Origin: a virus
Virus record (IMG/VR): IMGVR_UViG_3300026263_000200
DNA length: 64,000 bases
Reading direction: 5' to 3' (one strand)
Each line of letters begins with the position of its first letter. Position 1 is the first letter of the stretch. The notes under the pieces were generated by a model. The model was given only the letters and a program-made list of their open reading frames with translations. It did no database searches and was not told the DNA's origin. Both the position numbers and the translations under genes were made by a program. This document shows, piece by piece, positions 51,074 to 57,851 of the stretch.

Positions 51074-52039
51074 ATGGCAATATTTAGAGCAGGCAAACGT
51101 ATCGGTAATATGGATATCCGAGTAGGACTTCCAAGAGATAGAACTTTAGATAACGTTGAAGGAGATGAAAGAATTACACAACACCAACCTGGTGTTAATA
51201 GAAAAACAACTATTGGAAGATTTATAAGTGAAATTAATAGAGGTGAAGGTGTTGCTAGAGCAAATAGATTTTTAATTAGATTATTTCCACCAAGGGATGT
51301 AACTACAGTAGATGAAGTTGGATCTGATTTTGCTGGTTTTGATAAAGATAGTCTTCTTAATGAAGCAGGAATGAAAGGTAATGTAGAGTTGATGTGTACT
51401 CAAGCAAAATTACCTCATAGGGATGTATTAACACAAAATTTTGTAACTTATGGACCAGGTAGAAAAATGCCTTATGCATATGGATATGGTTCAAATATTG
51501 AGTGTATGTTTATGGGAGATAAGTTTTTAAGACAAAGAGCATTTTTTGAAACTTGGCAAGGCAAAATGCATAGTCTTGATACACACAATTTAAAATACTA
51601 TGATGATTATGTAGGTAGTATGGAAATTTATCAGTTAGGACAATATAGAGAATCAGACAAAGAAAATCCTGATGATAATTATAGAATGACCTATGGTATA
51701 AGATTGCACGAAGTATATCCAGAAACAATTGGTGAAGTACAATATCAATCATTAACGGATGATGTGATACCTATGGATATACCAATAACATTTGCATTTA
51801 GAACTTGGGAGAATATAACACTAGACGCAGTAAACGGTGTTGAATATGGTAAACATATTCCAGATATGCCTAACATTAAACCTGCTAAGAACTATGGAAT
51901 ATTTGGTGGAATATTAGCAAAAATGCCACCAGAGATTAAAAGAGCAAGTAAACAAGTTATTGATAAAGTTAAAAGAGATATGCCTATTGGTAAGGGCACA
52001 GGAGGCAGGGTGTTCCCACCTTTTGAGATAAATAAGTAA
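51074..52039 (+). CDS. gp54: baseplate-tail tube initiator (T4 gp54-like)
   Basis: GVARANRF, MCTQAKLP, FFETWQ, YYDDYVG, LHEVYP, TFAFRTW; position before gp26. Confidence 0.7.
   Translation: MAIFRAGKRIGNMDIRVGLPRDRTLDNVEGDERITQHQPGVNRKTTIGRFISEINRGEGVARANRFLIRLFPPRDVTTVDEVGSDFAGFDKDSLLNEAGMKGNVELMCTQAKLPHRDVLTQNFVTYGPGRKMPYAYGYGSNIECMFMGDKFLRQRAFFETWQGKMHSLDTHNLKYYDDYVGSMEIYQLGQYRESDKENPDDNYRMTYGIRLHEVYPETIGEVQYQSLTDDVIPMDIPITFAFRTWENITLDAVNGVEYGKHIPDMPNIKPAKNYGIFGGILAKMPPEIKRASKQVIDKVKRDMPIGKGTGGRVFPPFEINK
52027..52034 (+). promoter_or_regulatory. late promoter variant GATAAATA
   Basis: Upstream of gp26. Confidence 0.55.
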
Positions 52040-52061: not shown

Positions 52062-52802
52062 ATGGCATTACCTATATTAGAAACAGCGACATATGAATTG
52101 ACATTACCATCTAAAGATGTTAAGGTTAAATTTAGACCTTTTCTAGTAAAAGAAGAAAAGATATTATTACAGGCATTAGAGTCTGGTGATAATAAAGATA
52201 TGACTAGTGCTTTGAAACAAATAGTACACGCTTGTACATTTGGAACTATAGATATTAATACACTACCTATATTTGATGTAGAGTATATATTTTTACAGAT
52301 AAGAGCAAAGTCAGTTGGTGAAATAACAAAACTTAAATTGTTATGTCCTGACGATAGGAAATCTTACGCAGAAATTGAAATAGATTTGTCTAAAGTGGAA
52401 GTCCACGTAGATGAAGACCATACTAATAATATTGTGATTGATGAAAAGAAAAAGATAGGATTGGTTATGAGTTATCCTACCATAAATTCAGTTGATCCAG
52501 AAGCAGGTAGTAAAGAAGGTATGAAAACCAAGCAAATGTTTGAAATGCTGGCGAATACCGTCCATCAAGTGTATGAAGGTGATAAAATACACCCTGCTGG
52601 TGACTATAGTAAAGCCGAAATGCATAAGTTTTTAGAGAGTTTAGACGCAAAAACGTATCAAAAAATCAATAATTTTTTCAATACTATGCCTAGACTAAAG
52701 CAAGACGTAGAAATAGAGAATCCTAACACGAAAGTTAAGAGTAAACTTACGTTGCAAGGAATAGCTGATTTTTTCGTATTGCCCTCTCTCACGAATCGTT
52801 AG
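52062..52802 (+). CDS. gp26: baseplate hub assembly protein (annotated as gp26 in marine T4-like phages)
   Basis: MALP, YELTLPS, FRPFLVKEEK, FDVEYIFLQIRAKSVGE, FFNTMP, GIADFF. Confidence 0.9.
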   Translation: MALPILETATYELTLPSKDVKVKFRPFLVKEEKILLQALESGDNKDMTSALKQIVHACTFGTIDINTLPIFDVEYIFLQIRAKSVGEITKLKLLCPDDRKSYAEIEIDLSKVEVHVDEDHTNNIVIDEKKKIGLVMSYPTINSVDPEAGSKEGMKTKQMFEMLANTVHQVYEGDKIHPAGDYSKAEMHKFLESLDAKTYQKINNFFNTMPRLKQDVEIENPNTKVKSKLTLQGIADFFVLPSLTNR

Positions 52803-52969
52803 AGAATTACTATCAAGTGAATTTTGCATTAATGCAACATCATAAATATTCATTGACTGAATTGGAGAATATGGTGCCTTGGGAGAGGGAAATATATGTG
52901 AGTTTATTAACTAATTATATCAAGGAAGAGAATGATAGAGTTAGATTAAAACAAGCAGGTCAAAAATAA
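52769..52969 (+). CDS. gp51: baseplate hub assembly catalyst (gp51-like); no start codon before the conserved N-terminus, probably reached by a -1 frameshift
   Basis: The -1 frame reads RIALSHESLENYYQVNFALMQHHKYSLTELENMVPWEREIY...; it opens exactly at T TTT TTC. Confidence 0.75.
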   Translation, partial: FFRIALSHESLENYYQVNFALMQHHKYSLTELENMVPWEREIYVSLLTNYIKEENDRVRLKQAGQK

Positions 52970-54065: not shown

Positions 54066-55142
54066 ATGAAATTTAAATTTAAAAACAATATACAAAACAT
54101 TATTGGTGTTGTGATGTTAGTTGCTGTATTATTAGCAGTAGCTTTTACTAGCAATACTAAAAAAGGTGATAAAATTGAAGTAGTTAAAGAAATAGGATTA
54201 CTTCAACAAGTTAAAGAACGAGGTTATATTATATGTGGAGTTAATGCTAACTTACCAGGATTTTCTGCTCAAGACGAGAGTGGAACTTGGAGTGGTTTAG
54301 ATGTTGATTTCTGTAAGGCAGTTTCAGCTGCTATATTTGGTGATTCAAATCAAGTAGAATTTGTAGGATTAAATGCTGCTCAAAGATTTCCAACATTAGC
54401 GTCAGGTAATATTGATGTACTTGCAAGAAACACAACGTGGACAATAAGTCGTGATGTTAACTTGATGTTTGAATTTGCAGGTGTAAACTATTATGATGGA
54501 CAAGGGTTTTTAATACCAACAGAATTAGGAATTAAAAGTGCTAAAGGTTTAGATGGTGCGTTTGTATGTATTACAAAAGAAACTACAAGTGAATTAAATC
54601 TAAATGATTATTTTGCAGAAAACAATATGGCATATAAACCAATATATGTTGAAGGTAATAAAGAAGCAAAAGCAAAACTATTTGGTGGTGAGTGTGATGT
54701 ATTCACAACAGACGCCTCTGGTTTAGCAAGTGCTAGGTCTGGTGCAGACGATCCAAGTAAATGGATAGTATTACCAGAAATTATATCTAAAGAACCATTA
54801 GGTCCACTTGTAAGACAAGGCGACCAAGAGTGGGAAGACGTAGTTAGATGGACACATTTTATAATGGTTAATGCTGAAGAAGCAGGAATCACTAGTAGAA
54901 ATGTTGATGAAATGTTAACTGCTAAATCAAAAGAAGTTAAAAGAATATTAGGTGTTGAAGGTTATATCGGTCCTATGTTAGGATTAGGTATGAAGTTTGG
55001 TTATAATATTATTAAACAAGTAGGAAACTATGGGGAATCATTTGAGAGAAATGTAGGACCTGATACTCCACTTGCATTAGAACGAGGATTAAATAATCTT
55101 TGGAATAACGGTGGCGTAATGTACGTACCACCAATTAGATAG
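54066..55142 (+). CDS. aapJ: general L-amino acid ABC transporter substrate-binding protein (AapJ/BztA-like)
   Basis: LPGFS, GLDVDFCKAV, RNTTWT.SRD, YYDGQGF, ISKEPLGP.VRQGD, VGNYGESFERN, RGLNNLW. Confidence 0.92.
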   Translation: MKFKFKNNIQNIIGVVMLVAVLLAVAFTSNTKKGDKIEVVKEIGLLQQVKERGYIICGVNANLPGFSAQDESGTWSGLDVDFCKAVSAAIFGDSNQVEFVGLNAAQRFPTLASGNIDVLARNTTWTISRDVNLMFEFAGVNYYDGQGFLIPTELGIKSAKGLDGAFVCITKETTSELNLNDYFAENNMAYKPIYVEGNKEAKAKLFGGECDVFTTDASGLASARSGADDPSKWIVLPEIISKEPLGPLVRQGDQEWEDVVRWTHFIMVNAEEAGITSRNVDEMLTAKSKEVKRILGVEGYIGPMLGLGMKFGYNIIKQVGNYGESFERNVGPDTPLALERGLNNLWNNGGVMYVPPIR

Positions 55143-55635: not shown

Positions 55636-57543
55636 ATGGCAGATTCAGTAGTAGTTGGTGACAACGTAGAGTTGGTAGCAAATAATATACAATCTAAAGT
55701 CGGGTCTTCACTTGTAGGGTTAAAGAGTGCTGCTCAAGAATCTGCTACAGGTATAAGTGAACCATCTATGGGAGTATTAGATGGTATTAAAACTTTACAA
55801 CAAAAAACTGTTGATAAGGTACATCACGTTTGGGAAATATTAAAATCAACATTAGATTTTGAAAAAGACGAAGCACGTAAAGCAAGAGAAAGAGCTGGTG
55901 ATCCAGAAGGTGGACTTGGTAAGCGTGGTAAAGGTAAGGGTGTTCCTGGTGGTTTAGAAAAAGCAACCGAAGAAGCTGCTGGTGGTTGGGGACAAAGACT
56001 TATGGATATGGCAATGGGTGCTGGTGCTACTTTATTTTCAATGGCAGGATTAACTAGAATTGCAAGTCTTATATTTAAATCGGGTTTAATTTTATTGTTA
56101 GCAGGATTTGTTGGTGACGCCATAGTTAACCATTTTGAAATTGAAAGTGAATCAGCAAAAACAGCATTAAAATTTGGATTACCTGCTGTAGCAGCATTAA
56201 TGCCATTGTTGTGGCCAATGCTTGGAATTAAAGGACTATTAATGATAGCGATACCTGCTATTATTGGTATGGGATTCGCTTCAGTTATATCTTGGTTAAA
56301 AGGTGATAAGACTATGGATGAAGTGAGTGGATTTGATTGGGGTTCTGTTGCATTGACAGGTCCAGCAGTAATGTTATTAGGTAAATATGCAGGACTACTT
56401 GGTGCAAAAGGATTAACTTTAGGAGGACTTGCAATAGGTTGGCCAGTATTACTTGCAGGTTCATTAGCAATAGCTCTTGCCGCTGGTATTGGTTATTTGT
56501 TTTCTAAAGTAGCTGAAACTGAAAGAGAAACTTTAGACCATTTAAGTGAAATGACAGATTTATCGCAAAATGAATTTGAAAGAAGATTAGATGAACAAAA
56601 AGCAGGTTTCCTTGCTTCAATATCGCCTGGATTAGCAAAAACATTTGGTATGGAAACTACACAACTAGCTGACGCATATATGGCAACAAAAGCTGCTAAA
56701 AAAATAGTAAACACAAAAGATGGAAAACTTTCAGAACAACAGGTAACAGATTTAACTGCTAGTGTAGATATGTTTGCTAAAATGGATGAACAAACATTAA
56801 GAGCAGTACTTGATGATAAAGATAATGCAGATGATTTGATGAAAAGTATCCATAATATGTATCAAGTAGCACAATCAGGACAATTAGGAGATAATTCAGC
56901 AAAAGTAATTAAACAATTAGCAGCATTATCACAAAATATTCAACAAGTTGCTGGAGATATGTACAAAAAAAAAGAGGATGCAGGTGAGACCTCTTGGGGT
57001 AAAGAAAATTATTTAAAAATGATTGCTTCTGATAGCACTAAAAATGCTGATGGTGGAGATGTGTTTGAAAGATATGCCAACTTAATCGCTAATCCAAAAT
57101 ATCAAAAATTTGTTCAAGAAAAAGAAGCTATAGAAAATGATCCTAGATATCAAGAATTAAAAAGTATGGATTCTGATAAAATGGATAGAAATGATAGAAT
57201 GGAGATGAATGAATTTAATAATAAATTGGCAAAAGTAAATAAATCAATGCATTATATGGATAGAGCTGGAATGGGTAGTATGGGTCAGATAAAAATGATA
57301 GATATGTTAAAATTATTAACACCTGAAGAACAAGCACAATTATTAGAACAAGCACTATCAGATAAAAAAGTATTATTAATGGCAGCTAAAAAACTTGAAA
57401 AAGATGAAAAACATTTTGCTCCTGTTTCTAACTTTACTAAAGTTGATGGCTCTCCACAAATTATAACTAAAAGCTCAGCTGCTATTTCAGCGTCAGCTAT
57501 CTATGAAGTTGATGGTGCATTGCAAAGAGCATTAACTGATTAA
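55636..57543 (+). CDS. tape-measure-like / baseplate hub protein (gp29-like)
   Basis: Long helical protein with Gly/Ala-rich hydrophobic segments; downstream of gp26/gp51. Confidence 0.55.
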   Translation: MADSVVVGDNVELVANNIQSKVGSSLVGLKSAAQESATGISEPSMGVLDGIKTLQQKTVDKVHHVWEILKSTLDFEKDEARKARERAGDPEGGLGKRGKGKGVPGGLEKATEEAAGGWGQRLMDMAMGAGATLFSMAGLTRIASLIFKSGLILLLAGFVGDAIVNHFEIESESAKTALKFGLPAVAALMPLLWPMLGIKGLLMIAIPAIIGMGFASVISWLKGDKTMDEVSGFDWGSVALTGPAVMLLGKYAGLLGAKGLTLGGLAIGWPVLLAGSLAIALAAGIGYLFSKVAETERETLDHLSEMTDLSQNEFERRLDEQKAGFLASISPGLAKTFGMETTQLADAYMATKAAKKIVNTKDGKLSEQQVTDLTASVDMFAKMDEQTLRAVLDDKDNADDLMKSIHNMYQVAQSGQLGDNSAKVIKQLAALSQNIQQVAGDMYKKKEDAGETSWGKENYLKMIASDSTKNADGGDVFERYANLIANPKYQKFVQEKEAIENDPRYQELKSMDSDKMDRNDRMEMNEFNNKLAKVNKSMHYMDRAGMGSMGQIKMIDMLKLLTPEEQAQLLEQALSDKKVLLMAAKKLEKDEKHFAPVSNFTKVDGSPQIITKSSAAISASAIYEVDGALQRALTD

Positions 57544-57851
57544 TGATAACAATATTAGATAACGCATATAAAAGATTAAAAGAATTAAAAGCAAAACACA
57601 ATAAGAAATTTGTTAGACTTGATGTAAAGGGTGGTGGTTGTGCTGGTTTTAATTATGAGTGGTCATTTTCAAATGAAGAACAAAGAAATGACGCTGTAAT
57701 AGATGATATGTTATTAGTGAGTAGAGATTATGAACCATATCTTATGGGTATGGAATTAGATTATACTTATGATGACTTTGAGTCTGCCTTTGTATTTAAT
57801 AATCCAAAAGCTACATCTTCTTGTGGATGTGGAACTAGTTTTTCTATTTAA
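57543..57851 (+). CDS. iscA: iron-sulfur cluster assembly protein (IscA/HesB)
   Basis: GGGCAGF; NPKATSSCGCGTSF. Confidence 0.93.
   Translation: MITILDNAYKRLKELKAKHNKKFVRLDVKGGGCAGFNYEWSFSNEEQRNDAVIDDMLLVSRDYEPYLMGMELDYTYDDFESAFVFNNPKATSSCGCGTSFSI

Follow-up and report, generated by a model that had tools for sequence, protein, structure and literature searches.

Does a single gene of this phage specify two tail assembly proteins, the longer of them made only when ribosomes change frame? The window, by which we mean the whole 64,000-nucleotide (nt) stretch of DNA in IMG/VR record IMGVR_UViG_3300026263_000200, comes from an uncultured marine T4-like myophage, whose nearest cultured relative is Pelagibacter phage Mosig EXVC030M (Kyanoviridae; 72% nucleotide identity at the chaperone locus). 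Its plus strand carries a gp26-like gene of 246 amino acids (aa) at 52062 to 52802, and gp51-like sequence follows in the -1 frame. A preliminary description of the window had proposed that the two form a pair like G and GT of phage lambda, made by programmed -1 frameshifting. Comparison with relatives supports a pair of this type: the shift site and its direction are invariant, the constrained frame switches at the site, the conserved N-terminal part of the extension lacks a start, genomes of the frameshift type have one PF12322 gene where T4 has two, and the N-terminal domain resembles that of tail assembly chaperones (TACs). On this comparative ground, we consider it highly likely that the gp26-like gene encodes a tail (tape-measure) assembly chaperone that is decoded in two ways by -1 ribosomal frameshifting.

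A -1 frameshift of tail assembly chaperone genes is conserved in long-tailed phages (Levin et al. 1993; Xu, Hendrix and Duda 2004, 2013, 2014; summarized in PMC5009743). According to the model for lambda summarized by Atkins et al. (2016, PMC5009743), G forms a coat on the tape measure, and the tube protein is brought in by the T portion of GT. The T4 proteins gp26 and gp51 have been listed as hub assembly chaperones (Leiman et al. 2010, PMC3004832). The preliminary description knew of no account of frameshifting for T4-like gp26 and gp51, but such an account is cited: Vladimirov, Gautam and Davidson (Virology 2022, 566:9-15) is the source given for the terms TAC-N and TAC-NC and for the role of poly-T stretches as -1 signals within the TAC-N genes of T4-like phages (PMC12846349), as well as for a short gene plus a fused long gene replacing frameshifting in some T4-like phages (PMC10885494). 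As far as these citations of it convey, the phenomenon in T4-like phages appears to have been described already in 2022, so that the window provides a further example and adds, at most, candidate RNA stimulators.

A slippery heptamer at a conserved Phe-Phe motif

The heptamer T_TTT_TTC lies at 52769 to 52775 on the plus strand (0-frame GAT TTT TTC), in X_XXY_YYZ register and 9 codons ahead of the 0-frame stop. The -1 frame is closed immediately 5' of it by a TGA (52766 to 52768). Both elements are where the preliminary description had placed them. It erred in ending the gp26-like gene at TTC: the 0-frame reads GCT GAT TTT TTC GTA TTG CCC TCT CTC ACG AAT CGT TAG, and thus continues for 8 codons (VLPSLTNR) to the TAG at 52800 to 52802.

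Relatives were compared in a set made of the best 80 of at least 598 confirmed IMG/VR stretches, with gp26 identities of 40 to 82%; the heptamer was tallied on 82 distinct sequences and start codons on 83 loci. Conservation of the T-rich heptamer and of the -1 register had been named as checks on the proposal, and both hold. TTTTTTC is found in 70 sequences, TTTTTTT in 11 and TGTTTTC in 1, so that 81 of 82 have TTTTTTY, in a constant codon register. The first heptamer position is T in 82/82 (baseline, 76%), though the residue preceding Phe-Phe varies among Asp, Ser and Asn, and the first Phe codon is TTT in 81/82. The 0-frame ends 0, 1 or 8 codons past the site, and the -1 frame stop lies 0 to 14 codons ahead of the heptamer. 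This layout, heptamer included, recurs in the cyanophages S-CAM1, S-MbCM7 and P-SSM2, the KVP40-like Vibrio phage ValKK3, Sinorhizobium phage phiM12 and Caulobacter phage Cr30.

Another conserved Phe-Phe of the same gene, 32 codons upstream, served as an internal control. There, no more than 9 of 67 sequences are slippery, TTC serves as the first codon in 23/67, and the preceding base may be G, A, T or C. The window's own copy of the control site happens to read TTTTTTC in X_XXY_YYZ register (52673 to 52679; AAT TTT TTC, N-F-F at residues 204 to 206); a -1 slip at this position would lead to a stop after 5 codons. As a separate matter, TTTTTTC is unevenly distributed between the strands of the window, with 8 of 48 copies on the plus strand, which carries nearly all genes, and 40 of 48 on the minus strand. 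This bias probably reflects the purine-rich coding strand.

The conserved extension in the -1 frame

Past the TGA, the -1 frame holds 66 codons, which begin with FFRIALSHESLENYYQVNFALMQHHKY and end at a TAA (52967 to 52969). The gp51-like C domain that would be added after the slip (52775 to 52969, plus strand) amounts to 64 residues. The extension matches phrog_634, "baseplate hub assembly catalyst" (E value, 6e-30), and also the C-terminal end of phrog_150 (positions 231 to 279 of 282), a profile that the 0-frame protein itself matches with an E value of 3e-64 and covers only up to position 234. A tblastn search with the extension returned 603 phage records, nearly all of them matched from residue 1.

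The two frames keep a fixed relation. A -1 offset with an overlap of exactly 7 nt is present in 78 of the 78 IMG/VR loci long enough to show it, as well as in Mosig and in the window; the varying frame offsets that would have spoken for a different arrangement were not seen. Variability by codon position changes register at the heptamer: upstream, the third position of the 0-frame is the most variable (entropies 0.94/0.61/1.58 for the three positions), and downstream it is the third position of the -1 frame (0.73/0.51/1.27). By this sequence measure, purifying selection is acting on both frames. Judged from these alignments, the -1 frameshift site of the tail-chaperone gene is real and strongly conserved, and it is very probably functional; public records leave it unannotated.

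Relation to T4 gp26 and gp51

The product of the ORF (open reading frame) at 52062 to 52802 matches PF12322 (T4_baseplate) with an E value of 3.7e-60 and 203.8 bits against a cut-off of 24.5, over profile positions 2 to 218 of 219. In hhalign comparisons, this 0-frame domain aligns end to end with T4 gp26 (probability, 97%; E value, 1e-10). Both T4 proteins belong to the same family: gp26 matches PF12322 over residues 1 to 206 (E value, 9e-64) and gp51 over residues 1 to 201 (4e-55). In T4 gp51, about 50 further residues follow, which align with the -1 extension of the window (hhalign to gp51 residues 200 to 244; E value, 4e-5), and phrog_150 covers gp51 up to position 282. In T4 and Aeromonas phage 25, gp51 (249 aa) is thus PF12322 plus extension in a single frame, while gp26 is PF12322 alone, and the two genes are divergently transcribed in both phages. 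A long gene with the extension in frame is held by about 1385 T4-type phage records. Among complete genomes, Mosig, P-SSM2, ValKK3 and phiM12 possess one PF12322 gene each, and T4 possesses two.

The homology with gp26 and gp51, together with these copy numbers, indicates that short and long form belong together as a conserved pair, encoded by one recoded gene here and by two genes in T4. Like T4 gp26 (208 aa) and gp51, the window proteins contain PF12322; the short form ends at a shared G-L-x-[DE]-F-F motif, and the -1 extension resembles the gp51 C-terminus. The difference is that T4 and the roughly 1385 T4-type records have two divergently transcribed paralogues lacking a slippery run, whereas the window phage has one gene, so that making both forms from it requires recoding. 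T4 gp26 (locus L089, 818 to 1444) ends in ...GLKEFFELL, that is, at the shift motif of the window, but its codons there are GAG TTC TTT and not slippery; gp26 of Acinetobacter phage Kimel (locus L090, 783 to 1427) ends in ...GFKEFVEVL, and its codons, GAA TTT GTT, are not slippery either. Judging by these codons, the Phe-Phe motif is kept as protein, and the T-run is lost where no shift is needed, as in T4. In the GenBank record of Kimel, gp26 and gp51 are each already named "tape measure protein assembly chaperone."

Fold of the common domain

An AlphaFold (AF2) model of the 238-residue part common to both forms has a mean predicted local distance difference test score (pLDDT) of 84.9 and a predicted template modeling score (pTM) of 0.79. 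In an exhaustive VIA-align search, the top matches all lie over model residues 1 to 95: 3fgx (Z 8.0), 2ob9 (Z 7.4) and 3klu (YqbN; Z 6.7). The second of these is the HK97 tail assembly chaperone, to which model residues 1 to 90 align with 84 residues and a root mean square deviation of 4.1. The next match is 5ir0 (Z 5.1), and unrelated structures reach at most 4.4. The agreement of the top matches and their coverage of the whole domain support a TAC fold for the modeled N-terminal domain of the gp26-like protein, although the Z values are middling. Beyond residue 90, the model contains an additional alpha/beta part. A Foldseek search of the PDB with the model gave no match at an E value of 0.001 or below, and sequence-profile searches of the same database, started from the alignments of gp26 and of the extension, gave chance-level matches only.

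Proposed decoding and comparison with known frameshift sites

From the observed signals, their conservation and the homology with T4 gp26 and gp51, we infer the slippage, its rate, its stimulators and the binding partners of its products as follows. Most ribosomes would stay in the 0-frame up to the TAG at 52800 to 52802 and make the 246-aa TAC-N, the equivalent of T4 gp26. In a minority, both Phe-tRNAs would slip back by one base on U_UUU_UUC, and translation in the -1 frame up to 52969 would give a TAC-NC of 302 aa, the equivalent of T4 gp51. The long form would then read ...LQGIADFF-RIALSHESLENYY... across the junction, and its predicted tryptic junction peptide is LTLQGIADFFR, as opposed to LTLQGIADFFVLPSLTNR for the 0-frame product. 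Slippage is probably stimulated by a GC-rich helix beginning 6 nt downstream, and an upstream AAGGA resembling a Shine-Dalgarno (SD) sequence may contribute.

By analogy with gpG and gpGT of lambda, the role of the common N-terminal domain would be to coat the tape measure, and that of the C domain to bring in a component of the tail or hub. A predicted complex of the 66-aa extension with the gp54-like tube protein encoded upstream scored 0.00, the partner's own fold being uncertain, and is not evidence either way. The likeness to lambda consists of a short product and a -1 extended product sharing an N-terminal domain, and perhaps also of the position of the gene after a tube-type gene and before a gene of tape-measure size. 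In contrast to lambda, there is no detectable sequence similarity, the window protein is larger (246 aa), and 2.7 kilobases (kb) of other genes lie between the chaperone gene and the one for the putative tape measure. The lambda heptamer is G_GGA_AAG, as compared with U_UUU_UUC in the window. In Escherichia coli dnaX, the heptamer A_AAA_AAG is flanked by an SD-like element on its upstream side and a hairpin on its downstream side. The window may share this three-part layout, with the SD-like element 8 nt ahead of a tandem-slippery heptamer and a structure starting 6 nt past it. It differs from dnaX in the heptamer and in the distance of the downstream pairing partner, which is about 98 nt off where dnaX has a local hairpin, and the upstream element could be no more than a Gly codon.

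Candidate RNA stimulators

The 5' arm of the candidate helix, CCCTCTCTCA, occupies 52782 to 52791 of the plus strand, 6 nt past the heptamer, and the 3' arm, TGGGAGAGGG, occupies 52880 to 52889. That these two segments can pair, as the preliminary description had noticed, is borne out: they form 10 base pairs (bp), one of them G-U, and the helix is part of the minimum free energy (MFE) fold of the window sequence (-31.7 kcal/mol; z, -2.75). The MFE fold extends the helix outward, up to the heptamer, by pairing 52776 to 52780 with 52891 to 52895 (GUAUU/AAUAU). The RNAalifold consensus for the 82 sequences also picks the long-range helix.

Two clades were analyzed separately: a window clade, recognized by the peptide ALSH (37 distinct sequences), and a sister clade of 28 sequences. 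Within the window clade, 92.4% of helix cells are paired, while registers slid along the alignment reach at most 65%, and the covariation score was reached in 0 of 500 shuffles. At pair 18-117, which joins the third base of a Leu codon to the third base of a Glu codon, CG occurs 20 times, UA 13 times, UG once and A-A 3 times, and C-A does not occur. The arms are written in rare codons. In the 5' arm, Ala is encoded by GCC in 37/37 sequences (baseline, 7.4%) and Leu by CTC or CTT (baselines, 1.2% and 8.8%) in place of TTA or TTG; in the 3' arm, Arg is AGG in 37/37 (baseline, 12.8%).

The sister clade carries a GCCTC/GAGGC hairpin at the same 6-nt spacing, 100% paired, in which two sequences have switched to GCCTG/CAGGC. 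A His3-Pro3 pair that would extend a CCCA/TGGG contact in this clade was tried and dropped, as its pairing was mixed by eye.

Upstream of the heptamer, the SD-like AAGGA is located at 52756 to 52760 of the plus strand, with 8 nt in between, as previously described. Across the set, segments 7 to 20 nt upstream pair with the anti-SD at -4 kcal/mol or below at 72% of sites, compared with 8.7% of background windows.

A ribosomal stimulator of some kind is likely to be present at the chaperone frameshift site. As for its nature, the covariation of the long-range helix, read from aligned sequences, is suggestive, not decisive. Our tentative proposal is that stimulators are clade specific and written into the coding sequence with rare codons: CCCTYTC 6 nt past the heptamer plus GARAGGG about 98 nt downstream in the window clade, with synonymous third bases of Leu and Glu covarying, and the local GCCTC/GAGGC hairpin in the sister clade. 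The long-range RNA stimulator of the preliminary description is hence partly substantiated; the RNAalifold consensus, the rare codons and the CG-to-UA double changes argue for it, but the independent events are too few to be decisive.

Alternative explanations

Several points weigh against ribosomal frameshifting at this site or against the stimulators proposed for it. The case for a frameshift in this phage is made from comparative sequence throughout. In the AT-rich window, TTTTTTC occurs 48 times where 45 are expected and is no rarer than chance, so it is through conservation only that the heptamer gains significance. One IMG/VR relative (L013, 2199 to 2205) has TGTTTTC, which reads Cys-Phe in the -1 frame, and otherwise hardly differs from L012; the change may stem from a sequencing error or mark a variant whose site is disabled. 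The SD-likeness is confounded by overlap with an invariant Gly codon. As to the helix, the covariation rests on one base pair, and the arms also encode the conserved peptides ALSH and PWERE. Compensatory change, a further check that had been suggested, gave a mixed answer: the double change between CG and UA did take place, about 3 times on the gp26 tree (two of them on well-supported branches), but this leaves 2 to 4 contrasts, and the sign test is not significant. Three related sequences carry the A-A mismatch at the covarying pair, and the sister clade is without the long-range helix, its local hairpin being a weak one of 5 bp.

An improbable alternative to ribosomal frameshifting is transcriptional slippage, in which RNA polymerase would add one U on the T6 run and a minority of mRNAs would carry the extension in frame. 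The site is indeed a homopolymer, and the heptamer is all T in 11 of 82 sequences, with a run of T7 in 8 and T8 in 3. Slippage and frameshift products would moreover be identical (...DFFRI...), so that conservation at the protein level cannot tell the two apart. Against slippage, the run is only T6 in 70 of the 82. Bacterial RNA polymerase slips usefully at runs of about 8 to 9 or more A or T. The runs have not been lengthened, though 11/82 sequences show that Ser, Leu or Tyr can follow Phe-Phe. A helix maintained through rare codons, at the canonical spacing of 6 nt, and an SD-like element 8 nt upstream are signals of the kind addressed to a ribosome and not to a polymerase.

Still less probable are two separate genes, as annotated in GenBank, with gp26 followed by a small gp51 (44 to 58 aa) that is translated from an internal start or by termination-reinitiation. 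Public records do annotate a short ORF after gp26: in those examined (MT647606, AY939844, KP671755, KF381361, KF301602, KU686194 and KF156338), there is either a "gp51 / baseplate hub assembly catalyst" of 44 to 58 aa, with starts that differ between phages, or, in several, nothing at all, and none of the seven carries a slippage join. In most loci, codon 21 of the extension is a conserved ATG, the Met of LMQHH, and in a few an ATG occurs at codons 4 to 5. However, no start codon precedes extension codon 3 in any of the 83 loci, and in 78 of them the first start is at codon 10 or later, which falls within the conserved block FFRIALSH.SLENY..NFAL. In the window, the first possible start of the -1 ORF is a GTG at 52817, codon 17, in keeping with the earlier remark that the N-terminal part of the gp51-like sequence has no start of its own. 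The 16 to 21 residues ahead of any start are among the best conserved of the extension and show -1 codon periodicity; as they precede the start, independent initiation of a small gp51 cannot make them. The in-frame fusion of the extension to the PF12322 domain in the T4-type records mentioned above also speaks against a separate small protein.

Finally, T-runs are error prone, and the window is one sequence from an uncultured phage. Even so, a sequencing artefact (a true T7, which would make the locus a plain fusion) or decay (a gene recently broken by a frameshift mutation) can practically be dismissed, since the -1 offset is constant across 82 distinct sequences from many metagenomes and across independently sequenced isolates of several genera, a number of independent sequences that excludes sequencing error, and since both frames are under purifying selection.

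Meaning for T4-type phages and their annotation

With ribosomal frameshifting in the gp26-like gene as the preferred reading, an apparent gap left by T4-type phages in the near-universal frameshift of tail chaperones would be closed. Among the groups sampled, abundant marine ones (cyanophages and pelagiphages of the Kyanoviridae) would make their chaperone pair by recoding, and in T4 a duplicated gene would have taken the place of the slip. The GenBank and RefSeq records that now contain a meaningless 44- to 58-aa "gp51," or nothing, number in the hundreds and should carry a ribosomal-slippage join instead.

Neighboring genes

Directly upstream of the chaperone gene, the plus-strand ORF at 51074 to 52039 encodes a tail-tube-like protein of the gp54 type (tube initiator), which matches phrog_45, "tail tube," with an E value of 2e-21; the syntenic gene of Mosig is annotated "baseplate tail tube initiator."

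The preliminary description also pointed to a tape-measure-like gene at 55636. An ORF of 635 aa does start there (55636 to 57543, plus strand), but it is not adjacent to the chaperone gene, from which 2.7 kb of other genes separate it, and we regard it as a putative tape measure (gp29 equivalent) from its size, position and composition only, the last consisting of Gly/Ala-rich hydrophobic stretches. It has no Pfam or PHROG match, and BLASTP against the tape-measure candidates of Cr30 and ValKK3 was also empty. In Mosig, ValKK3, phiM12 and Cr30, a large syntenic ORF follows the chaperone gene directly or beyond 1 to 2 small genes, and in Cr30 and phiM12 it carries a tape measure annotation.

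Two genes of other kinds are found in this part of the window. Between the chaperone and the putative tape measure, the ORF at 54066 to 55142 encodes 358 aa, of which the N-terminus is hydrophobic and another part matches the solute-binding domain of family 3 (PF00497; E value, 2e-13), and looks like a host-derived auxiliary gene inserted in the tail module. Directly after the putative tape measure, an auxiliary-type gene at 57543 to 57851 encodes a 102-aa HesB/IscA-type iron-sulfur cluster assembly protein (PF01521; E value, 4e-15).

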